Assembly: GCA_021432655.1 (NCBI GenBank) | Contig: MU271564.1 | Span: forward strand, 1-44,245 | Length of the DNA: 44,245 nt | Reading direction: 5' to 3' | Source: Atractiella rhizophila | Lineage: Eukaryota | Shown: one piece after another, positions 5,981 through 40,150 of the stretch | Numbering within the stretch: position 1 is the first letter of the stretch | How the letters are laid out: the number at the start of each line of letters is the position of its first letter | Program-made: the position numbers and the translations under genes | Notes under the pieces: generated by a model | Seen by the model: the letters and a program-made list of their open reading frames with translations, nothing else | Told to the model about the DNA's origin: nothing | Database searches by the model: none

Positions 5981-8683
5981 ATGGCAGCACCGACGAGTTG
6001 TCCTGGCTTCAACACGCCCAAATGTAAAGGGACTGCTGCCAGAAGGAGCAGCGAGGTGTCCAACCTGTTTGAAGCAGGGCGTGACGAGCAGGTGGTGTTC
6101 CAAAGGTTCGTCTTTGGCATCCCAGCTTTAGAATTCGAGAAGGCTGATGAAATGTTGCTCTCCAGAGTGCTTTGCTGATAATTGTACGTCTCCTCTCTTT
6201 AGATTAATCTACGGCTGATCCTGCTACAGTCGTGAGTGATTTGATCTCGATTTAGGCTATATCATCTCGATTTATGTTTCTTTTCTTAATCTGATTAACT
6301 CGTTGAACAAAGGATTCCTAATAAAACAGGAATACAGCTTATGTCTTTTCTTTGTAGTCAAGAAAGGCATCTCCCGCTCAACCAAGAGCATGATGTCAGT
6401 GTTGTTTGAAACACTTCTTACCTTCAAACACCGCACTCCATTCCGCAAATTCACGCTGGGAGATGCTCCAATGCAATCATTCCATCCACAGCTTTTAATG
6501 ATTCAAGCAAAGAGCAAATACTTTATTTGGGTGCTTTTCGCCCAAATATAAAGCGAGAGCCTTTCAGGTCTCGCTGTAGTGTATGTATGCCTAAATGTCC
6601 TGGTATCTCTCACCAGACAAAAAAACATTTCCATTTATATCTCAACATCGCCGTGTTCAAAAAATGGCACAGCTCTAACGTTATCGAATCTTGAAGATAT
6701 CGATTTGTAATGATCTCTGCGTGTGATTATTCTAGCAGGTTGCACACAATTTTTCAATCGTTCGAGTTTTTTGATAGGTCCATCAAAGGCATTTTCGACT
6801 TATATTAGTCTCACTGTTTCAAGTTCCGGAGCAGTACGTTCCATCACATTTTCTCACACTTTTGCAGTTGCAATTGCAAAGGAGTGTGTGGTCAGGCAAG
6901 GAAGTCACTGTCGTTCTCCCTTACGTTTGAGTGTCGAGTTCTAAACGAGATTTTTCTATCTCAGCTGAACCAAATAGCTTTACGAGATCATTACCACCTA
7001 ACTCCTGAAAGCGACATTCTCATTTTCACTGACATCTGTTGAACTAGCCAAAACACAAATTGCTACACAAAGGTGGGTAAATCTCATTCGACAGGCAGCA
7101 CCTCTCACCGTGTCCCATCATTCAAGCGCACGACCCATACCCGAAAAAAGCGTACACCGGAACACTCCGAGCTTCGTTCCCAGCATCCGTTCGTTCAGTG
7201 CCATCAGACATCCAACAACGACAGGTGCCCGCTCATATCCCTAAACCAGACTATGCAGAATCAGGTGCGTCTCCTCCTTCTCCTCGTACCAATCCTTGCT
7301 GACGGTTTGGGATTTGGGTAGGTAAGTGGGGTCGCATCAAGTATGGAATCTCGGAAGTGGGTATGTCTGATCGACGATTTTTATATTTGAAAGGTCAATC
7401 GAAAACGGAAATGGCAGCTCGAAACTTTGCTCCTGCTTGTTTGGATGCGAAAGGCATCGAGGGAATGCGAGAAGTCTGTCGCGTGCGTCTTCTTCCTCTC
7501 GTCTTACCAATCTAAGTTGTAATGTATTTGGCGACAGTTGGCGAGAGAAGTATTGGACTTGGCTGCTAGTCACATTAAACCTGGAATCACGACCATAGAG
7601 CTGGATGAGATCGTACACAATGCTTGCATCGAGCGAGGAGCATATCCTAGCCCGTTGAACTACATGCTCTTCCCGCGCAGTGTTTGTACAAGTGTCAACG
7701 AAGTCATCTGTCATGGTTCGTCTTTCATTATCCTCCTGCAAGCCGAGCTTACTTTTTCCCAGGGATCCCTGATCTTCGTCCACTGGAAAAGGAGGACATC
7801 ATCAACCTCGACGTGACGCTCTACCACAACGGGTGTGTCAGCTCTGATCTTCTCACGTCACCTCAACCGACCCGAATGGGGCAGGTTCCACGGCGATATC
7901 AACGGAACGTATCCCGTCGACGAAGCGCATACCCCTCCAGACTCGCTACGACTCATCCGCACGGCTCGCGAGTGTCTAGACGAGGCAATAGCGATCTGTA
8001 AACCAGGAGTGCCGTATTCACAGCTCGGAAAAGTCATTGAAGGCATCGCTAATCGGGAAGGAATGGGCACCAATCGACGGTATTGTGGACATGGGATAAA
8101 TCAGCTCTTCCATTGCACACCAAACGTCCCGGTACGCTTTTATTTCCATTTCTCTCTCCCTCTGGAAATTGCTGAGTTAAGATTATGTAGCATTATGCTG
8201 CTAATAAAGCGCCTTATGTCATGAAACCAGGTGAGGATCTCATCGTCCTCGCTTCATTGTTTGTTAAAATCTTAATTTTCAGGAAATGTGCGCTTGAACT
8301 TATTATGATTATTTCGCTTCCTCACTCCGTTGCCCTCCAGACGTTCACAATCGAGCCGATGATCACATTGGGCGACCACAGAGACAAACATTGGCCGGAC
8401 AATGTACGCAACCGCTTTCTTCGTCGGGACATTTACTAACAAAACTGCACAGTGGACCGCAGTGACACGCGTGCGTCAAATCCACCTGAATCACCATTAC
8501 ACTGACAATTCGGGGACATAGGACGGAAGTCACTCTGCCCAGTTCGAAGAAACGCTGCTCATTACGGAAGACGGCGTGGAGGTTCTTACGGCGAAGCCTG
8601 GGTGGAAGTTGGGAGACGGCTGGCGAAACACTTCGCAGAAAGCACCGGAAGCAAGCGGGTCAGGGAGTCAGAATGGTGCGTAG
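5981..8683 (+). CDS. MAP1: Methionine aminopeptidase 1 (type Ib, N-terminal zinc finger), paralog A; many introns and microexons
   Basis: Zn finger [64 protein letters not shown]. One extra G at 6029-6031 shifts exon 1. Confidence 0.92.
6232..7047 (+). other. 816-nt spliceosomal intron of MAP1a, densely tiled with inverted repeats
   Basis: GTGAGT donor, CTGAC branch (~7029), TAG acceptor. More than 12 stem-loops visible by eye. The same intron is 49 nt in paralog B. Confidence 0.75.
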
Positions 8684-9076
8684 GCATTCTGGTAATAGCT
8701 ATCTTTTTTCGTTATTATCGCGCTTGAAAACCTGCCTCCATTATGCATATGTGACCATGACAAACTGTTCGTCGTACCTCCACTTCTTGCTAGGGAACTT
8801 CCTGTCCTGCTTCCATTCCCCTTCCACTTTGCCGCTCAAGTGTCCTGTTGTTGTCTCCGACCATCATCACGCGAATCAAGGCATGGATCAAATTGCAGCG
8901 AAACGTGACTTGAGACTTGCCTCATGGAACAGCAGGGTAAAGGCGTTGCTCGTCGCTTTGCAGCTGAGTCATCGGAGGAGAATAAAAGCTACCGTGAAGA
9001 AAAGTCTCCTCAAGCTAGACTTGCCTGAGTGTTCAGATCTTTCCATACCTTCAGTGCCTCGATAGATTTTCCCTCG

Positions 9077-9709: not shown

Positions 9710-10128
9710 CCACGGGAAAGTCCAAAAGGATGATGGGATAGATAACTCGATAAAAAGCGAATCACCATGAATTGCGCGGCATTCTCTTTCCCAAACATCA
9801 GAAACACACACAGAAACAAAAGGAACAAAAAGAAATCGAAGAAGCCGGACCACTCGAAATTTCCTCCTTTCTCTTCAATCTTCATCCTTGAATCTTCAAT
9901 CAGACAGAATACGTTTGTTCAGCGGCAGGGCACGACTGGTTTGGTTTGGTTGGTTGGGGTGGTGGGAATGAGAGTCGAGAAAAAACGTTCTTTGCTGCTA
10001 CGAATGTTGAGGGTGCATGCCAAATTAAGGGAATGAGAGAAAGAGAAGAAAGAAGAAAGGGTATGATCTCGTTGGAGATGTCGAAATTGAGCGAGCGGAA
10101 AGGAGTGGAAGGTTCAGGTGGAGTACGT

Positions 10129-11094
10129 CTACGATTGCTTGATCTGCAGCAAAACATCAATGGGCAACAGAACCCGAGAGGATGGAGGGATGTCTTACAT
10201 TCTGGGTGAGCCACGAGAGTCCTATATCGAGTTTCGGATGGGAAAAAAGTCAAAACATGGAGAGTGAAGGGAAGATGGAATAACAGACCTTCGAACAGCC
10301 CATCGCCTTGTAAGGCGTTGCTAGGGTGGCAATACCAGCTTCGATCCCTCATCTTGAGCAATCCCAATTTCTCCGTCACCTCAGTCGGGCTCATCGCTAC
10401 ACGTTCGCTTTAAAAAACAAACCAACATTCAAGAGGGAGGGAGGAATCGCAAAGACGGACCACCGGGCAAATCTTGCTTGTTGGCGAAAACGAGGAGCAG
10501 ACAATCCTTCATCTCCCTGTCTTGCAAGATCTTGTGTAACTCCAACCGTGCCTCGTCGATCCTCTCCCTATCCTGAGAGTCGACCACGAAAACTAACGCC
10601 TGTGTGCCGGTGTAATAGTGCCGCCAGAGGGGACGGATCTTATCTTGTCCTCCCACATCCCAGACGTTGAACCTGTCGTTTGATAAAATGAGCAGAGGGA
10701 TGAGGGGTCATGATTGGAAGAGGAGAAGGACGCACTTTACGTTCTTGTAGGTCACCGTCTCGACGTTGAAACCGACGGTTGGGATGGTCGTGACGGATTG
10801 ATTCAGCTTGAGCTTGTAAAGGATAGCTGTGACCACACACAACACGAGACAGAGCGAACACATCACCCATTCATTCATTCATGCATTCATTCTCCGAGAA
10901 AAGAAAGAACGCACTCGTTTTCCCAGCTGCGTCCAGTCCGAGCATGAGGATCCTCATCTCCTTGTTACCGAACAGCTTTCCTGCACCACCGCATCACCAA
11001 GTCAGAGTTTTGCGTGGATAGCCGAAGAAGTGAATGCGCATGGAAGCAGAATGGAAGGGCATGTACCGAGCGCTTTGGAGAGGGCGGCACCCAT
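10129..11094 (-). CDS. ARF6: ADP-ribosylation factor, Arf6 class, copy 2
   Basis: Same exon structure and protein as 1030-2000. Confidence 0.93.
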
Positions 11095-11276
11095 CGTTTC
11101 TGGCTATTAGAACTGGGGGACAGACACGAGTCAACAAACACTCTCTCAGCGTGAGGAAGATACTCACGACGTATACTTTTATGGTGACAGTGGTCAATCT
11201 CCTGAAGATGATTTGGGTTACGAGTTCACGTGACATGTTTCCGTCCAGCTCCAACTACGACGGGTGACAAGTCTCG

Positions 11277-14200
11277 ATGTCTCGATTTCGCACGTCAGCC
11301 GAAGAAAAGTCGAGCAGCGCCACCGTTTCTGCTTCGGGGTCGAGGAGACTGAGCACCAAGAGAGATCGAAGCGGATCGGTGGGGAGCAGCTATGTCCTGT
11401 CAGGTAGTGCGGGTGGCACTTCAAACACTGCAAACACCAACGCCTTCCCATCAGGTGCGTATCTTTCACATCACATGTATCCAGAACGGCAGTCAAATGG
11501 GTGTTTTTCTGGGTCAAAGCATCAATGATTTCGCCATCTGGACGGATCCGTCCCACGTCTCCTTTACAGCGCAGGGGAACCATCTCCGACCTTTTCCCGA
11601 CCTCTCCCTCTCCTCCGCCCAACACCAATCCTACCTCAACCTCCAGACGGTCTCCTCCGCCGTCGCCAAGAAGCAATCAAAGCGGAAACATAGGCATCGG
11701 TATCCCTCAGGCGTTCCACGCACACAACCCTCCTCCCTTGCGACCGGAAGACGAGGACGAGCCCTCCGACGAGTCGTTTGAGGATATTGGGAATGAACAG
11801 ACGTTCAGTAACACTCATCGGAACATTCCGTCGGCGGAGTATTCTGGCAGGAGCGGGTTTCGAAGGAGGAGTAAGAGGAAAAGCAATGGCCCTGGAGAAG
11901 ACAAAGACACGGCGAGCGTGAGGAGTGGTGGTGGTATAATCAAGGGGTTAGGGAGGAAAGGCTCTCGGATCTTTGGGGGAGGAAAGAGTTCGATGACGCC
12001 GTCAACGAACGAGGATGCCGGAACGACCCTTGGAAGGTCCGGATCACAGGGGTCGAACAGCATTGACGAACTGTTCAACTCCCTCACCTCTCCACGGTCC
12101 CCATCACCCGGCCCCAACCTATCTGGATACACCGGAAGTGGAAGTGGATATCCCGAATCCTCCCCGTCCCCTCCTCCAAGCGCCTCCCGCCGTCTGTCAC
12201 CACGCTCCTTCCTCAACCTTGGCATCTCCAATTCCTCCACGCCTGACCTCTCACAGCACCCTCCCTCTCCACCACCGAGCTCGGGAAGCAGACTGATGTC
12301 CACCATCGGCAAGGTCAAGTCGAAGTCGAAGCGAGGCGCAACCATCTCTACTCCTTCACCTTCCGTCACATCTTCTCCACTGAACAACAACTCCAATGCC
12401 CAAACACACAGTCGTGGTGGTTCGACGGATATCCTGCGCCCATCTCATCCTCCTCCAACACTACATTCCCGTACTTTCTCCCCTTCGATGCAACAAGAGC
12501 TCTTCAGAGCTTCTCCAGAGCCACCCACCCCTCCGACAGCAGCACAAGGCGGTCCAGACTTTCCCGTCGCCTGGGCTCCCTCCCACCAACCTCAACAGCA
12601 GCAACAAGAGACCCAAGGCCCTCCCTCCGCCTTCCCACGGCGTATCTCAGGCTGGCTATCCGGCGTCCTCTCCCCTCCCACTCCCAGCCCAACACCCGGA
12701 CCCGGATCCGGAGGCAGTGGGACGGAAACTCTCTCTCCCAGTCCCCTGCCGCGCACTTCCAGCGCAAGTGGATACCGTGTGATGCAGGGAAAGAACGCGA
12801 GCGCTCAGTCCCTCTCTTTCCCCCCTCCCTCTCGCGAACGTTCCGTATCTCCGTCACCAGCTCCTCCCCCGCCTCCGGCGTCCAGTCCCCCCTCGACGTT
12901 CCGCGCTCCGTCCCCTAAGAAGAGCGCTGGAGGAGGGTTAGGTGGATGGGTCGGCCTGGGTGGAGGTGGTGGATTGGATAAGGCGGTGCAGTTCTTTTTG
13001 GATTCGGATTCGAATGGAGTGGGAAGTGGTGAGGAGATTTGGGTGATGGGTGTGCGACATGATGGTGTTGTGAAGGACGAGGAGAGGGAGAAGGAGAGCA
13101 AGAAAGAACGGAAGAGAAAGGAGAAGGAGAAGGAAAGAGAGAGGGATGAACTCGAAATCGTTAGAGTTGGAGCATCTACACCTGGAGGGAGCAAGATACT
13201 CTCTGCCCTCCCGAAGAGAGCTATCGTCAAAGCGTTACCTGGGGCAGTGACTGGTGGGAACAAGCTGATGTCTTCGGCGGCAAAACTAGCGTCATCCAAT
13301 AGCAAGGAGAAGAAAGGAAAGAAGGAGCAACAAGCGTCTTCAGCTCCACGGTTTCGAGAAGGATGGGATCGGAACGCCTCCGTATCCCCACCCCCCTCCT
13401 CCGCTGCATCCACATCCTCCGGTCCACTCTCTTCCATGCCCTTCCCTCCCCCATCCCTTGCACAAACCGGAGGCTGGCCCCCGAGCTTCTATCACGACTT
13501 CTACTCCCGCATCGTCCTCCACTACCGCTCCGGATTCCCAGTCATCCCTTGTCAACCGAACACCAACCCTCTTCGCGACGTGCTCGGCAGTCTTTCAGCC
13601 TCCTTAGGGAGGGGAGGCGGACCGAGCGGGCGCACGGCTGACGGTCTGACGAGCGATGCGGGATGGGGTTGCATGCTCAGGACTGGGCAATCCCTTCTCG
13701 CGAACGCGTTGGAGCGTGTACATCTCGGTAGGGAATGGAGAAGACCTGTACCCGCGAAAGATAAAGAACCGTCGTCGCCGATGGTCGTTGTCGATCCTCA
13801 TACTTATCAACGTCTCATCAGCTGGTTCATTGATGATCCCTCGCCCCTAGCACCGTTCTCGGTGCACAAGTTTGCGGTGAAGGGAAAGGAGCTGGGGAAG
13901 GAGATTGGAGAGTGGTTCGGCCCTTCTACCGCCGCTGGTGCTATCAAGTCCGTCGTTTCTTTTGACTACTATCTTCTTTCTGATTTCTAATGTTGATGAG
14001 ATTAGGAGTCTGACGAATGAGTTTGCGCCGGCGGGCATGGGCGTTGCGAACGCGATTGATGGAACCCTCTACCGCACAGACGTCTATGATGCTGCCCAGA
14101 CCGTCTTGAAGAAGGAGAAGAGGAGGAGCAAGGACGTGATGCGGAACCCGAATGCCAAAGTCAAATGGCAACGACCTGTGTTGGTTCTTTTCGGCTTACG

Positions 14201-20091: not shown

Positions 20092-21281
20092 TCAAAGTGC
20101 GGAATAACCAGAACGACCAGTCCGTCCCCCGGTGACAATATCGCTGTGGAAAATGTTAGCATAAAATAACGCAGACAGCATCACTTACCGTAAGAGGTAG
20201 GGAAGATCACGCCTAAAGACAACATCAATTTCAGTTCAATTGCAAGAACGACAGGTAATCACCAAAAGTCTCGATGAGGTATCAAATCCCAACCTCGAGC
20301 TCCAAAGTTCTTGTGGTTGTTATAAATTCCGATAGCAAAATAGGCAGCAAGACCGCAAAATATCCTGGTCCAAAACGCCATCTCAGGTCTTTAGCTGATA
20401 TGAAGCAATCCTAGACGCACAACAAGAAAAATGTGCCTACTCCCCATCCACCACCGCCACCACCTTTACTCCCTTCATCGTCTTCTGACTTGTCTCCTCC
20501 GCGCCGCAACAGGTCAAGGTCGCATCCGGCTCTGGACACCCACTCGAGCTCGAGCTTTCCTTCCTCCTTCTCCCCTAATTCCAGATCTGAATACCGCATG
20601 CTCTTGATCGTCGGTTCAGTCTGCTCAATCGTAGGTGAGCGAAGTGCCATGAAGGGAAAGCTAAATCACCTTTTCTGCATCCTCCGAGCAGGTGAATAAT
20701 ATTGACGTAGAAAGAGCGCGGCCATTGTAAGAGCCTCCCGTGAGGTTAACAAGGAAATTTGCTAGATACAAGTTATTAGTAACGGTCGTCCTAATACTCA
20801 ATTCTGAACCACGCATGAATCTGACAAATGCTGACGACGTATTCTGCAAGTGATAATTCGAAAAATGCTCATAGATATTTATGCGTGGGACTGTGTAAGA
20901 AGGAGGTTGAGTCCTTTTGAAATTAATACGGGACAACTCCAGTTCTCTGCAAAATGGTAAAGCAAAGGGAAGCCACAGCGACAACTGTCTCAGCAGCTCA
21001 GCTTCACGCCACAAATAGTAAAGTATCCCCTTGCAGGCTTATAGAATCATTCAAAAGTCCAGAGAAAGGAAAGGACATGTGTTCCCTCAGCTCTGTAGAA
21101 GCGAGACGTACCGTTGCTCTTCCCTTTAGCTTTCTCAACGCTTCCCTCTCCTTCCGACCAGTCAATCACCCTCGTAATCCTTTCCCTCTCCACTTCCTTC
21201 TCCTGATCCCCATCTGGCACTTTCTCCTTCTTAAAGTTCCTTTCCTTCGAACACACCCTGCTCCCTTCCTTACACCTATCA
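20092..21281 (-). CDS. ATG27: ATG27 copy lacking its 5' end (broken inside exon 1 at the duplication junction)
   Basis: Matches 26339-27527; no signal peptide part. Confidence 0.7.
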
Positions 21282-21698: not shown

Positions 21699-23128
21699 TC
21701 AGAGTGCGGAATAACCAGAACGACCAGTCCGTCCCCCGGTGACAATATCGCTGTGGAAAATGTTAGCATAAAATAACGCAGACAACATCACTTACCGTAA
21801 GAGGTAGGGAAGATCACGCCTAAAGACAATATCAATTCCGGTTCAAATGCAAGAGCGATGGGTAATCACCAAAAGTCTCGATGAGGTATCAAATCCCAAC
21901 CTCGAGCTCCAAAGTTCTTGTGGTTGTTATAAATTCCGATACCAAAATAGGCAGCAAGACCGCAAAATATCCTGGTCCAACACGTCATCTCAGGTCTTTA
22001 GCTGATATGAAGCAATCCTAGACGCACAACAAGAAAAATGTGCCTACTCCCCATCCACCACCGCCACCACCTTTACTCCCTTCATCGTCTTCTGACTTGT
22101 CTCCTCCGCGCCGCAACAGGTCAAGGTCGCATCCGGCTCTGGACACCCACTCGAGCTCGAGCTTTCCTTCCTCTTTCTCCCCTAATTCCAGATCTGAATA
22201 CCGCATACTCTTGATCGTCGGTTCGGTCTGCTCAATCGTAGGTGAGCGAAGTGCCATGAAGGGAAAGCTGGATCACCTTTTCTGCATCCTCCGAACAGGT
22301 GAAGGATATTGACGTAGAAAGAGCACGGCCATTGTAAGAGCCTCCCGTGAGGTTAACGACAAAATTTGCTGTGTACAAATTATCAATAAGGGTTGTACTA
22401 ATACTCGATTCTGAACTATGCATGAATCCGGTAAATGCTGACGGCGTATTCTGCAAGTGATAATTCAAAAAATGCTCATAGATATTTATGCGCCGGACTG
22501 TGTAAGAAGGAGGTTGAGTCCTTTGAAATTAATGCGGGACAACTCCAGTTCTCTGCAAATGGTAAAGCAAAGGGGAGCCACAACGACAACTTTCTCAGCA
22601 GCTCAGCCTCACCCTACGAATAGCAAAGTATCCCTATAGAATTGTTCACAAGTCCAGAGAAAGGAAAAGGACATGTGTTACATCTGCCATGTAGAAGCGA
22701 GACGTACCGTTGCTCTTCCCTTTAGGTTTCTCGACGGTTCCCTCTCCTTCTGCCCAGTCAATCACCCTCGTAATCCTTTCTCTCTCCACTTCCTTCTCCT
22801 GATCCCCATCTGGCAATTTCTCCTTCTTAAAGTTCCTTTCCTTCGAACACACCCTGCTCCCTTCCTTACACCTATCACCTTCCTCTGCATCTTTCTCCCC
22901 GTCCAGCTTCAAAGCGTCGCATAAAGAAATGTAAATAGACGTCTGCGTGCGCGTTGGCGGTGTCGTTTGGTCGAGTATGAGCGTAGTGAGTGGTGGAAGA
23001 ATGGACAAGTCGTATGACTTGGAGTTGAGCGAGAATGTACATGAAAACGGCTCACCATTGGCTGTGGCTGCCAAAAGAAGGACAAGGGAGAACGGCAGAA
23101 GCGATATTCGAGGAAGCATTGTAGACAT
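21699..23128 (-). CDS. ATG27: Autophagy protein Atg27 (M6PR-like type I membrane protein); first intron 22369-22707
   Basis: Signal peptide, YDLS, TPPT..ISLC..C..GSRVC, TM helix, YNNHKNFGARGWDLIPHRDFW..DLPYL, C-terminal YxxPhi motif GYSAL*. Confidence 0.88.
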
Positions 23129-24748: not shown

Positions 24749-25264
24749 TCATTCCTCAGTCTTCCAACCATCACCCCATTTCCATCCATTGGCAGCCGTA
24801 AGCACTTCCACTCCATCCTCGGTGATCAAGAGCGTTTCCTCCCACTGCGCAGAATGCTTACCATCCCTCGTGACAGAGGTCCAGTTGTCTGGCCAATGCC
24901 TATCTCGGTAGTCCCCGAGAGTGATCATAGGTTCAATAGTGAAGGTGTGCCCTGGTTTCATCACGTATGGAGCCTTATTGGCAGCGTAATGGGGAACATC
25001 GGGGATAGCATGATAGAGCGTATTCACGCCGTGTCCAATGTACCTTTCGTTCCCGGATCAGCTTGATCAGTACCGACTCTTTTTACGTTGAAAGGAGGCT
25101 CAAAACGTACTTTCTGACGGTCCCCATGCCATGCCTGTCCGCTGTCTTCTCGATCACTTTTCCCACCTCTCTATAAGGAACTCCGGGCTTGCAGATGGCA
25201 ATGGCCTGGTCTAGACATTCGCGAGATGCCTTAATGAGACGGAGAGATTCAGGAGGTGTGTGAG
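24749..25264 (-). CDS. MAP1: MAP1 paralog B, 3' fragment running into the gap
   Basis: Nearly identical to 29530-30045. Confidence 0.85.
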
Positions 25265-25979
25265 NNNNNNNNNNNNNNNNNNNNNNNNNNNNNNNNNNNN
25301 NNNNNNNNNNNNNNNNNNNNNNNNNNNNNNNNNNNNNNNNNNNNNNNNNNNNNNNNNNNNNNNNNNNNNNNNNNNNNNNNNNNNNNNNNNNNNNNNNNNN
25401 NNNNNNNNNNNNNNNNNNNNNNNNNNNNNNNNNNNNNNNNNNNNNNNNNNNNNNNNNNNNNNNNNNNNNNNNNNNNNNNNNNNNNNNNNNNNNNNNNNNN
25501 NNNNNNNNNNNNNNNNNNNNNNNNNNNNNNNNNNNNNNNNNNNNNNNNNNNNNNNNNNNNNNNNNNNNNNNNNNNNNNNNNNNNNNNNNNNNNNNNNNNN
25601 NNNNNNNNNNNNNNNNNNNNNNNNNNNNNNNNNNNNNNNNNNNNNNNNNNNNNNNNNNNNNNNNNNNNNNNNNNNNNNNNNNNNNNNNNNNNNNNNNNNN
25701 NNNNNNNNNNNNNNNNNNNNNNNNNNNNNNNNNNNNNNNNNNNNNNNNNNNNNNNNNNNNNNNNNNNNNNNNNNNNNNNNNNNNNNNNNNNNNNNNNNNN
25801 NNNNNNNNNNNNNNNNNNNNNNNNNNNNNNNNNNNNNNNNNNNNNNNNNNNNNNNNNNNNNNNNNNNNNNNNNNNNNNNNNNNNNNNNNNNNNNNNNNNN
25901 NNNNNNNNNNNNNNNNNNNNNNNNNNNNNNNNNNNNNNNNNNNNNNNNNNNNNNNNNNNNNNNNNNNNNNNNNNNNNNN
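25265..25979. other. Assembly gap (715 N)
   Basis: Run of N. Confidence 1.
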
Positions 25980-26338: not shown

Positions 26339-27779
26339 TCAAAGTGCGGAATAACCAGAACGACCAGTCCGTCCCCCGGTGACAATATCGCTGTGGAAAA
26401 TGTTAGCATAAAATAACGCAGACAGCATCACTTACCGTAAGAGGTAGGGAAGATCACGCCTAAAGACAACATCAATTTCAGTTCAATTGCAAGAACGACA
26501 GGTAATCACCAAAAGTCTCGATGAGGTATCAAATCCCAACCTCGAGCTCCAAAGTTCTTGTGGTTGTTATAAATTCCGATAGCAAAATAGGCAGCAAGAC
26601 CGCAAAATATCCTGGTCCAAAACGCCATCTCAGGTCTTTAGCTGATATGAAGCAATCCTAGACGCACAACAAGAAAAATGTGCCTACTCCCCATCCACCA
26701 CCGCCACCACCTTTACTCCCTTCATCGTCTTCTGACTTGTCTCCTCCGCGCCGCAACAGGTCAAGGTCGCATCCGGCTCTGGACACCCACTCGAGCTCGA
26801 GCTTTCCTTCCTCCTTCTCCCCTAATTCCAGATCTGAATACCGCATGCTCTTGATCGTCGGTTCAGTCTGCTCAATCGTAGGTGAGCGAAGTGCCATGAA
26901 GGGAAAGCTAAATCACCTTTTCTGCATCCTCCGAGCAGGTGAATAATATTGACGTAGAAAGAGCGCGGCCATTGTAAGAGCCTCCCGTGAGGTTAACAAG
27001 GAAATTTGCTAGATACAAGTTATTAGTAACGGTCGTCCTAATACTCAATTCTGAACCACGCATGAATCTGACAAATGCTGACGACGTATTCTGCAAGTGA
27101 TAATTCGAAAAATGCTCATAGATATTTATGCGTGGGACTGTGTAAGAAGGAGGTTGAGTCCTTTTGAAATTAATACGGGACAACTCCAGTTCTCTGCAAA
27201 ATGGTAAAGCAAAGGGAAGCCACAGCGACAACTGTCTCAGCAGCTCAGCTTCACGCCACAAATAGTAAAGTATCCCCTTGCAGGCTTATAGAATCATTCA
27301 AAAGTCCAGAGAAAGGAAAGGACATGTGTTCCCTCAGCTCTGTAGAAGCGAGACGTACCGTTGCTCTTCCCTTTAGCTTTCTCAACGCTTCCCTCTCCTT
27401 CCGACCAGTCAATCACCCTCGTAATCCTTTCCCTCTCCACTTCCTTCTCCTGATCCCCATCTGGCACTTTCTCCTTCTTAAAGTTCCTTTCCTTCGAACA
27501 CACCCTGCTCCCTTCCTTACACCTATCACCTTCCTCTGCATCTTTCTCCCCGTCCAGCTTCAAAGCGTCGCATAAAGAAATGTAAATAGACGTCTGCGTG
27601 CGCGTTGGCGGTGTCGTTTGGTCGAGTATGAGCGTAGTGAGTGGTGGAAGAATGGACAAGTCGTATGACTTGGAGTTGAGCGAGAATGTACATGAAAACG
27701 GCTCACCATTGGCTGTGGCTGCCAAAAGAAGGACAAGGGAGAACGGCAGAAGCGATATTCGAGGAAGCATTGTAGACAT
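26339..27779 (-). CDS. ATG27: Autophagy protein Atg27, complete second copy
   Basis: Same structure as 21699-23128 with a few substitutions. Confidence 0.88.
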
Positions 27780-29529: not shown

Positions 29530-31137
29530 TCATTCCTCAGTCTTCCAACCATCACCCCATTTCCATCCATTGGCAGCCGTAAGCACTTCCACTCCATCCT
29601 CCGTGATCAAGAGCGTTTCCTCCCACTGCGCAGAATGCTTACCATCCCTCGTGACAGAGGTCCAGTTGTCTGGCCAATGCCTATCTCGGTAGTCCCCGAG
29701 AGTGATCATAGGTTCAATAGTGAAGGTGTGCCCTGGTTTCATCACGTATGGAGCCTTATTGGCAGCGTAATGGGGAACATCGGGGATAGCATGATAGAGT
29801 GTATTCACGCCGTGTCCAATGTACCTTTCGTTCCCGGATCAGCTTGATCAGTACCGACTCTTTTTACGTTGAAAGGAGGCTCAAAACGTACTTTCTGACG
29901 GTCCCCATGCCATGCCTGTCCGCTGTCTTCTCGATCACTTTTCCCACCTCTTTGTAAGGAACTCCGGGCTTGCAGATGGCAATGGCCTGGTCTAGACATT
30001 CGCGAGATGCCTTAATGAGACGGAGAGATTCCGGAGGTGTGTGAGTTGGATCGACGGCATATGTCGCGTTCAGATCAGCGTGGTACCTGTTTCGTAGAGT
30101 GGAGGATTAGAGTGGTTGTCCGTCTGCAAGCTCAGACCGGAGGATTGGGAAGACAGACCCGTTGTAGAAAAGAGAGACGTCGAGATTGATGATGTCTTCC
30201 TTCTCAAGAGGTCGACAATCAGGAATCCCTACAGAACTAGGTCATCGGCATTCTTCACACAATGACTGCGAGAACGCATACCGTGGCATATGACCTCGTT
30301 TACGCTGGTGCACACCGAACGAGGGAAGAATCCATAGTTCAAAGGTGAGGGATAAGCATTGCGCTTGATGGCTTCTTCATGTACAATCTCATCGATCTCT
30401 AGTGTCGTGATTCCAGGCCTGATAGCGGCAGCGGCTATATCAAGCACTTCCCTTGTCAACTAGCCAAGCGTTAATATTTCAAGGACAGAGAGGATCAGAT
30501 CGACAAGCGCACACGTCCGACAGTCTTCATCGCCTCTATGCCTGCCTCATCGAGAGCGACCGGAGGCTTCATTCGCGCCGCATACTCCAATTTCGATTCT
30601 CCCGTCGCAGCGTAATCCGGACGGGGGATGTGAGCAGGAACGTGACGCAGCGGGATGTCGGCTGGGATGTTGCGCATGTTGGAGGGAAAGGAAGCGCGCA
30701 ATGAGCCAGTGTAGGTTTTCTTTGTGTAGGGATCGTGCACTGTCCTTTAGGTTGACCATGCAATGGGCGATAACGGAGAAATTCACTAACGCTTGTGTTG
30801 GGATTTGTGTTTTGGCTTGAACGGGGGGAGTTGGCTTGCGTTCAGTGCAGGAGAAGAGACGTACGACTGTTCAGCATATGAGCATTCTGCGTACGGGTTA
30901 AAAGGGGTTACTTACAATTATCGACAAAGCATTCTATAGGTCATGAGAATATACTTTAGCTTCAATGTGCTAGATTTTGGTGAATGACCACAGACCTTTG
31001 GAGCACCAGCGGCTGGTGTTGCCCTGCTTCAGGCATACACTGCATCGTGTGCCTTCCTCTTGGTCAGGAACGAGACCTTTGCATTTTGGCGTGTTGAATC
31101 CTGGACAAGCCACAGGCACTGCAGCTTCGGCAGACAT
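29530..31137 (-). CDS. MAP1: Methionine aminopeptidase 1, paralog B (complete)
   Basis: [89 protein letters not shown]. Confidence 0.92.
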
Positions 31138-39617: not shown

Positions 39618-40150
39618 CTAAATCATCTCCACGACCATTTGATCGCCATCTGCTATCTGTCCACCCCTGATCCCCATTTTATGAAGTATATGAAGAACCA
39701 CAATGCACAACATCCAAACGACGATTAGGAGTGGTAACAAGTATACCACCCACTTATGGGTGTCGTCGAGGCACTCGGCGACGAAGTAGTAGGTGACAAA
39801 GAGATAGAATGCCCAGAACGCTACGTAGCAACAGACTCGCAAAAATGCTGGTAGTTTTTGACGGTAAAGTCGCCTCCCGGCTATGATTACTTTCAGTTAG
39901 AAGTAAGGCAGCGAGGATTGGAGGACTCACAGGTATGGGCATGCATGCGTGAGATGTTGTCCAACACTGAGATTCTGGCGAGGAGGAGGAGAAGGCAGAT
40001 GAAAACCCCAAGGCATTGTCTACCTCCCTTGTCTGAAGACTTGAGCAATGTATCAGTAACGACTGGCAGCATGTTGTCAACGTATTCTTCAACTTTGCTC
40101 CTTGGTGCCTCCTTCTCCATCCTCCTCTCTGAACTGAAGCGAGGGGCTGC
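39618..40150 (-). CDS. Hypothetical multi-pass membrane protein, 3' exons; 5' end unresolved
   Basis: Hydrophobic segments (CLGVFICLLLLL; CCYVAFWAFYLFVTYYF; WVVYLLPLLIVVWMLCIVVL) separated by a GTGAGT..CAG intron-like segment. Confidence 0.35.

Follow-up and report, generated by a model that had tools for sequence, protein, structure and literature searches.

The stretch analysed here is a 44,245-nucleotide (nt) piece of fungal DNA rich in short introns (contig MU271564.1, forward strand; hereafter the window). It contains a gene for methionine aminopeptidase type 1 (MAP1), gene A, and a second copy, paralog B. This report concerns one intervening sequence of gene A, 7265-7393, which we found to be a composite of two complete, abutting U2-type introns with a zero-length exon between them, in phase 1 of a Gly codon. 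The features at the site are as follows.

5982..8683, plus strand: gene A, methionine aminopeptidase type 1, from the ATG at 5982 to the stop TAG at 8681-8683, with 13 intervening sequences when 7265-7393 is taken as a single one.
7127..7264, plus strand: upstream exon, closing with ...CCAGACTATGCAGAATCAG (PDYAES and the opening base of the Gly codon); the left side of the RNA contigs of runs X9, X1 and X6 ends here, and the translation agrees.
7265..7321, plus strand: first intron unit, A1a, 57 nt, GTGCGT...CTGAC...TAG, from the sequence, the donor and acceptor scores and the branch motif.
7321..7322, plus strand: the zero-length exon, or pivot, TAG/GTAAGT, where the acceptor of unit 1 touches the donor of unit 2; identified from the sequence and from its rarity under shuffling.
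7322..7393, plus strand: second intron unit, A1b, 72 nt, GTAAGT...CTGAT...AAG, from the sequence and the scores; there is no RNA contig cover in bins 7272-7333.
7394..7482, plus strand: downstream exon, translated ...REVCR, from RNA contigs and translation.
29530..31137, minus strand: paralog B of the MAP1 gene, from a tblastn search of the gene A exons against the window and from reading the sequence; its introns are placed by homology only.

Reading the letters of 7265-7393 on the plus strand shows two complete short introns, 57 and 72 nt long, that abut with no exon between them. The exon before them ends ...ATCAG at 7264, and the donor GTGCGT starts at 7265. Unit 1 carries the branch motif GCTGAC at 7298-7303, whose branch A (7302) precedes the end of the unit by 19 nt, and closes with TAG at 7319-7321. 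Unit 2 begins at once with GTAAGT (7322-7327), carries TCTGAT at 7367-7372 with the branch A at 7371, 23 nt from its end, and closes with AAG at 7391-7393; the next exon begins GTCAATCG at 7394. An earlier note on this DNA had described this anatomy of two complete introns without a spacer, and its coordinates and signals agree with our reading, as does its statement that removal of the first unit creates a CAG|GTAAGT donor. Three features of the zero-length-exon class are found here: the internal AG stands directly before GT, a donor, a branch site and an acceptor are present in either half at workable distances, and both halves are gone from the mature RNA.

The RNA evidence consists of assembled contigs from four runs (X9, X1, X6 and X2) placed on 6900-8750, and such contigs drop rare forms. 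Nine runs were listed, none of which held half of the sampled words (the share for X9 was 0.36); X1 and X6 are recorded as metatranscriptomes, and X1, X6 and X2 come from related strains, 95-99% similar, whose contigs carry no intron sequence. In each of X9, X1 and X6 one contig connects 7262/7264 with 7392/7394 and leaves out 129 nt that have GT..AG ends; the exact cut is ambiguous over 4 letters, and the shorter sides of the joint measure 33, 86 and 57 letters, respectively. The X2 contig begins at 7393 and is uninformative for the site, so 3/3 site-covering runs show 7264^7394, the mature junction that the earlier note had proposed to look for. Bin 7272-7333 has zero contig cover in 4/4 runs, with the proviso that contigs show presence and not absence. 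The mature mRNA lacks all 129 nt. X9 also holds two 61-nt contigs that differ at exon positions 7425 and 7428 (plus strand), with depths of 132.6 and 202.7, which would fit two alleles or nuclei in the sample.

With the junctions taken from the RNA contigs and from placed loose contig ends, the spliced frame of gene A is open. Removal of the 129 nt gives the reading ...PDYAESGQSKTE..., collinear with paralog B, which has no intron at the site matching 7264|7394; the translation thus bears out the collinearity put forward earlier. Read in frame, unit 1 runs into a TGA at 7300-7302, and unit 2 is stop-free and a multiple of three (72 nt), its translation being flanked by two Gly codons. The suggestion that 7322-7393 could be kept as a 24-residue insertion was therefore sound as to length and lack of stops, but the 7264^7394 joint in three runs speaks against the retention itself: the full 129 nt are removed in each, contrary to an insert in the main form and against constitutive retention.

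We scored the splice signals with position matrices trained on 20 other introns, 12 of them from gene A with RNA support and 8 from paralog B placed by homology. The donors of units 1 and 2 scored 10.5 and 5.6; the 20 training donors ranged from 1.6 to 10.1 in leave-one-out scoring, and the unit 1 donor outscores all of them. The acceptors scored 1.9 and 4.7, within the 0.9-6.5 spanned by real acceptors, on a matrix that holds little information in this window, where 44% of all AG reach 1.9. Both units carry a canonical branch motif, CTGAC or CTGAT, 19 and 23 nt from the AG, and a [CT]T[AG]A[CT] motif was found 7-25 nt from the end in just 9/19 short training introns.

If the two-intron layout were fortuitous, it should recur when the interior of the intervening sequence is scrambled. 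We permuted the interior of the 129 nt 40,000 times, holding the outer donor and the last 30 nt fixed, and counted permutations with an internal HAG|GTNNG, a branch motif 7-30 nt upstream of it and halves of at least 45 nt each. The pivot layout arose in 255/40,000 shuffles; in 205 of these the donor score fell in the real range, and in 64 it was at least that of the real donor. The layout thus exceeds chance expectation. When both strands of the window were scanned under strict criteria for intron pairs spaced 0-6 nt, this pair alone was returned, but the scan is insensitive, having missed the known 2-nt and 5-nt pairs described below. A window-wide intron finder gave 331 donors with a flat length distribution, mostly noise, and was dropped; lengths and matrices rest on the introns of genes A and B.

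The remaining introns of gene A and its shortest exons give the setting in which the pivot lies.

6106-6165 (60 nt), 6184-6229 (46 nt), 6232-7047 (816 nt) and 7073-7126 (54 nt), plus strand: introns of the 5' part, from RNA contigs.
7483-7537 (55 nt), 7716-7762 (47 nt), 7833-7884 (52 nt) and 8132-8190 (59 nt), plus strand: introns of the middle part, from RNA contigs.
8231-8282 (52 nt), 8288-8340 (53 nt), 8404-8452 (49 nt) and 8471-8521 (51 nt), plus strand: introns of the 3' part, from RNA contigs.
6230..6231, plus strand: 2-nt exon TC between the 46-nt and 816-nt introns; immediately ahead of 7048, loose contig ends of X1 and X6 show ...GATAATTTC.
7048..7072, plus strand: 25-nt exon just after the 816-nt intron, from RNA contigs.
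8283..8287, plus strand: 5-nt exon GAAAT between introns 8231-8282 and 8288-8340; the joint 8231^8341 carries AAAT in X9, X1 and X2, and the frame is restored.
8453..8470, plus strand: 18-nt exon between introns 8404-8452 and 8471-8521; the joint 8403^8521/8522 carries 17-18 letters in X9 and X2, and the translation agrees.

Eleven of the 12 other introns of gene A measure 46-60 nt, and the 8 introns of paralog B (homology only) measure 49-72 nt; against this range of 46-72 nt, lengths of 57 and 72 nt are therefore ordinary and a length of 129 nt is not. The 816-nt intron (6232-7047) has a lower G+C content than its flanks (0.42 in bin 6001-7000). The 2-nt exon reads AATT|GTACGT...ACAG|TC|GTGAGT in its genomic context, and paralog B shows the same AG|TC|GT layout at 30866-30865 (minus strand), between two 49-nt introns (again by homology only). 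Near-touching acceptor and donor pairs are normal for gene A, and the spacing of zero at the pivot is the end of a series of 2, 5, 18 and 25 nt. Because intron pairs lie 2, 5 and 18 nt apart, this organism must routinely cope with acceptors and donors in near contact, and these likewise call for consecutive reactions.

The reading that we prefer, with a probability of about 55%, is that 7265-7393 is removed recursively, in two steps. Introns this short imply intron definition, and under intron definition a one-step removal must pass over a branch site with its AG and over the internal GTAAGT. The outer donor is followed by a consensus branch site 37 nt downstream and by the first AG 19 nt beyond that, and of the two donors the internal GTAAGT lies the nearer to the branch site downstream; given these spacings, each unit should be recognised alone. 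Intron definition for short introns is also discussed in the accessible text of PMC6616335. Units 1 and 2 would be recognised separately and excised in two consecutive reactions, which could not be simultaneous because one phosphodiester bond is both the acceptor of unit 1 and the donor of unit 2. Were the upstream unit to go first, the intermediate 7264^7322 would present the consensus CAG|GTAAGT donor at its junction, to be used next; were the downstream unit to go first, the intermediate would be 7321^7394, and the upstream unit would then use its own branch site and TAG. Either order would be possible, and both would yield the same mRNA, encoding ...PDYAESGQSKTE... In favor of two-step removal we count the full set of signals in each half, the rarity of the layout by chance, the ordinary sizes of the units, the 7264^7394 joint in RNA, the near-touching pairs elsewhere in the gene and the precedent in other fungi, from which the reading is inferred.

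Several observations weigh against two-step removal. Neither 7264^7322 nor 7321^7394 occurs in the joints table of the four contig runs, a result of little weight either way, as contigs lose rare intermediates. The acceptor of unit 1 (GGATTTGGGTAG) is low at 1.9, a level that 44% of the AG sites in the window reach, and the outer donor, at 10.5, is the best-scoring donor of the gene. The 816-nt intron lacks any internal HAG|GTNNG, so the spliceosome here is able to remove a long intron in one piece. Finally, the minimum-energy fold pairs the CT-rich 5' end of unit 1 with a G-rich stretch across the pivot (helix 7266-7336, -38.4 kcal/mol). If such a hairpin is real, the pivot would be hidden and the outer donor drawn close to the branch site downstream, but over the full 129 nt the fold falls short of significance (z = -1.61, with 12/200 shuffles folding at least as well).

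The strongest alternative, which we consider appreciably less probable but a serious competitor, is that the 129 nt leave in one step as a single intron, with the donor at 7265, the branch A at 7371 and the acceptor at 7393. The internal TAG|GTAAGT and CTGAC would then be relics, either of two introns around a micro-exon since lost or of an intron inserted beside another, and would now be bypassed or used in a small share of transcripts only. That 7264^7394 is the sole junction seen in the 3/3 site-covering runs fits this explanation, as do the strength of the outer donor, the pivot-free removal of the 816-nt intron and the possible hairpin spanning unit 1 and the pivot, were it significant. 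Unused internal signals would be expected to decay, yet both stand at consensus; the internal GTAAGT is the donor nearer to the downstream branch site, and the upstream branch site and AG sit at a normal distance from the outer donor. Nor does chance account for the layout.

A much weaker alternative, which we regard as very improbable, is that 7322-7393 codes facultatively, as an exitron or retained intron, and in some conditions adds 24 residues between the zinc-finger linker and the catalytic domain. Its length and its freedom from stops would allow this, and there is an in-frame insert at exactly the same site in some relatives: among 87 database MAP1 proteins measured, 6, all from Microbotryomycetes (Microbotryum, Rhodotorula and Sporobolomyces; proteins P0001, P0009, P0014, P0018, P0021 and P0031), carry one immediately beyond the three residues that follow P[DE]Y, which puts it at the codon position of 7264|7265. 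However, the peptide encoded here is unlike those inserts (35 to 491 of 1000 shuffles reach the observed score), and neither paralog B nor 80/87 of the measured proteins have any insert at this point. The inserts begin [G/S/C]-E in 6/6 cases, which fits read-through of N|GT GAG and suggests that they are unrecognised phase-1 introns at the same position in these protein models rather than coding sequence. In gene A itself, 7272-7333 is uncovered in 4 runs and three show full removal. Equally improbable is a regulatory pivot, at which use of a single unit would give unproductive transcripts and tune MAP1 through nonsense-mediated decay: unit 1, if retained, brings in the TGA at 7300-7302, and S. 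pombe prp10 is regulated by decay-coupled splicing according to the accessible part of 10.1101/226894, but the contigs of all runs hold no such isoforms, and any short stop-bearing fungal intron behaves alike when retained.

In gene A, Peptidase_M24 (PF00557) is found in exon 7886-8131 (E 1.5e-12) and in exon 7541-7717 (E 4.8e-08), and zf-C6H2 (PF15801) gives a weak match on exon 1 (19.7 bits, short of its cut-off of 30). Both PF00557 and PF15801 occur in the best database relatives, and gene A has the characters of type 1 MAP1. When we searched with an 82-residue exon, 189/274 candidate proteins matched at E <= 0.001, with MAP1 of Sporobolomyces and Rhodosporidiobolus at the top (63-70% identity), followed by Agaricomycetes and rusts; a protein search with the 45-aa exon adjoining the site gave 12 candidates and 0 significant matches. 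By these protein matches the organism is a basidiomycete, the protein collection searched contains no close relative of it, and the one exon would place it nearer the Pucciniomycotina. The window also contains near-identical duplicated blocks, at 24761-25262 (minus strand) against 29542-30085 (minus strand), at 1000-2700 against 10100-11800, and at 20400-21100 against 22000-22700 and 26600-27350. They include a partial third MAP1 copy, which ends at a run of N at 25265-25979, and two copies of an ARF GTPase gene, and could be real segmental duplication or an assembly artefact.

We compared the site with known systems in which introns are nested, abutting or removed piecemeal. At the ratchet points of Drosophila and vertebrates, a juxtaposed AG|GT regenerates a donor after the first reaction; such recursive sites were reportedly described in long Drosophila and vertebrate introns by Burnette in 2005, Duff in 2015 and Sibley in 2015. 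The pivot of gene A shares the juxtaposed AG|GT and would likewise regenerate a donor. Ratchet points, however, split introns of tens of kilobases, and in vertebrates they work through exon definition of a cryptic exon, whereas here the whole sequence is 129 nt and intron definition is implied. The earlier note also named the stwintrons of ascomycetes. As the accessible text of PMC6616335 describes them, stwintrons of Pezizomycotina have an internal intron that interrupts the donor, branch site or acceptor of an external intron, so that the order of removal is obligatory and there is no external intron until the first reaction has taken place, and its authors treat abutting introns as a class apart. 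Both are complex fungal intervening sequences, and stwintrons are lost by consecutive U2 splicing reactions (same source), as would be the case here. In contrast to stwintrons, all six signals of 7265-7393 are intact from the start and the order is unforced. We rejected a stwintron reading of the site, having found no [D1,2]-type fit to the letters at 7264-7267 and 7319-7327.

The closest parallels come from fungi, and the background given in the earlier note has to be corrected on this point, since recursive splicing at zero-length exons is documented there (10.1101/226894 and 10.1101/224170, in the parts available). In C. neoformans BOT1, spliceosome profiling revealed recursive splicing at a zero-nucleotide exon that divides a 375-nt intron into 210 and 165 nt (Burke et al., 10.1101/224170, accessible text). 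As at our site, the host is a protein-coding gene of a basidiomycete, and what looks like one intron consists of two that join at a zero-nucleotide pivot and are both missing from the mature mRNA. For BOT1 the junctions, the branches and the intermediates have been measured, whereas the much shorter units here (57 and 72 nt) are known from sequence and mature contigs. A zero-length exon also lies in a 336-nt intron of S. pombe SPNCRNA.445, one of two S. pombe instances reported in all in the available text of Chen et al. (10.1101/226894). There, as here, an acceptor stands directly beside a donor inside a fungal intron; for SPNCRNA.445, full removal was confirmed by reverse transcription polymerase chain reaction, and the same portion of the paper describes a host unlike gene A, a non-coding small nucleolar RNA host of an ascomycete yeast, with pivot splice sites conserved in sister species. 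Ultra-short exons are known from the basidiomycete Coprinopsis cinerea, where intron pairs with a spacing of 1-3 nt are common and long-read re-annotation recorded exons of 1 nt 13 times, of 2 nt 57 times and of 3 nt 27 times (PMC12230235, accessible part). Gene A resembles that set in its 2- and 5-nt exons. The C. cinerea exons given there are at least 1 nt long, in contrast to a zero-length exon, which leaves no trace in mature mRNA.

Altogether, the source texts available to us document two fungal cases from S. pombe and one from C. neoformans, with introns that measure 336-375 nt, and in the openly accessible main texts searched we found no description of zero-length exons with units as short as these. 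We therefore regard 7265-7393 as a candidate addition to the known class, differing in the minimal size of its units and in its setting among exons of 2-25 nt.

How might two introns come to abut? We compared 13 introns in 78 pairs, without using the pair scores of the intron at 6106-6165, and found the closest likeness between unit 1 and the next intron of gene A.

7483..7537, plus strand: intron A3, 55 nt, supported by the RNA joint 7482^7538 in X9, X1 and X6.

The first 30 nt of A1a and of A3 are identical at 24/30 positions without a gap. The alignment scores 35 against a shuffle mean of 14.0 (standard deviation 2.1); 0/300 shuffles reach this score, and it is the top of the 78 pairs. Across the window, to which the comparison for introner-like elements was confined (44 kb), A1a again finds its best non-self match in A3; the next best, with a score of 28, is an intron of the duplicated ARF gene, at 10735 and 1634 (minus strand). 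Three independent introns thus share a 5' module of GTGCGTC, a CT-rich run and CCAATC (7265-7294, 7483-7512, and 10735-10712 on the minus strand with its duplicate at 1634-1611, also minus), and the likeness ends after about 30 nt. Among the 38 GT[GA]CGT sites in the window, only these 4 (3 independent) have CCAAT 15-40 nt downstream. CCAATC occurs 38 times in the window against about 21 expected, including soon after donor-like sites at 39921, 36423 and 30148 (minus strand). The module may represent a small intron family or a shared intronic motif.

The inserts of the Microbotryomycetes bear on the age of the site. If they are introns, their position suggests that the site held an intron before this species arose, with the second unit being a later addition beside it. 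Of the 80 loci retained from a metagenome scan, the best reached 59% identity and none was an orthologue. All 71/71 MAP1 loci that reach the site are uninterrupted through residue 55; 69 have a single match over residues 45-65, and the other 2 end at residue 61. These loci are distant and partly intron-free, so the result says only that the intron position is not widespread. Two further observations concern the inserts themselves. Those of the Sporidiobolales are alike (...WSG..GG...KAEEV.R.I.YGLRD), which is unexpected for plain intron sequence. Homology of the 7322-7393 peptide to the Microbotryomycetes inserts was also considered, and was rejected as not significant.

One explanation of the layout, which we put forward as a doubtful idea, is that the zero-length exon records the gain of an intron at an exon-intron boundary. 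A1a would be a young copy from a family of look-alikes with GTGCGTC, a CT-rich run and CCAATC, and would have entered, for example through reverse splicing, precisely where an older GTAAGT intron offered a CAG|GT proto-splice site.

Zero-length exons are invisible both in mature mRNA and in gene annotation, and at this locus the effect on annotation is nil because the protein is the same by either path. What the pair of 57 and 72 nt offers is a compact substrate with which to ask whether short-intron spliceosomes must process such units in succession, what the order is, and by what route intron gain makes such pairs. If the intron-gain view is true, the gain of introns in intron-rich basidiomycetes would regularly leave behind abutting introns and ultra-short exons, and annotation would greatly understate how common zero-length exons are.

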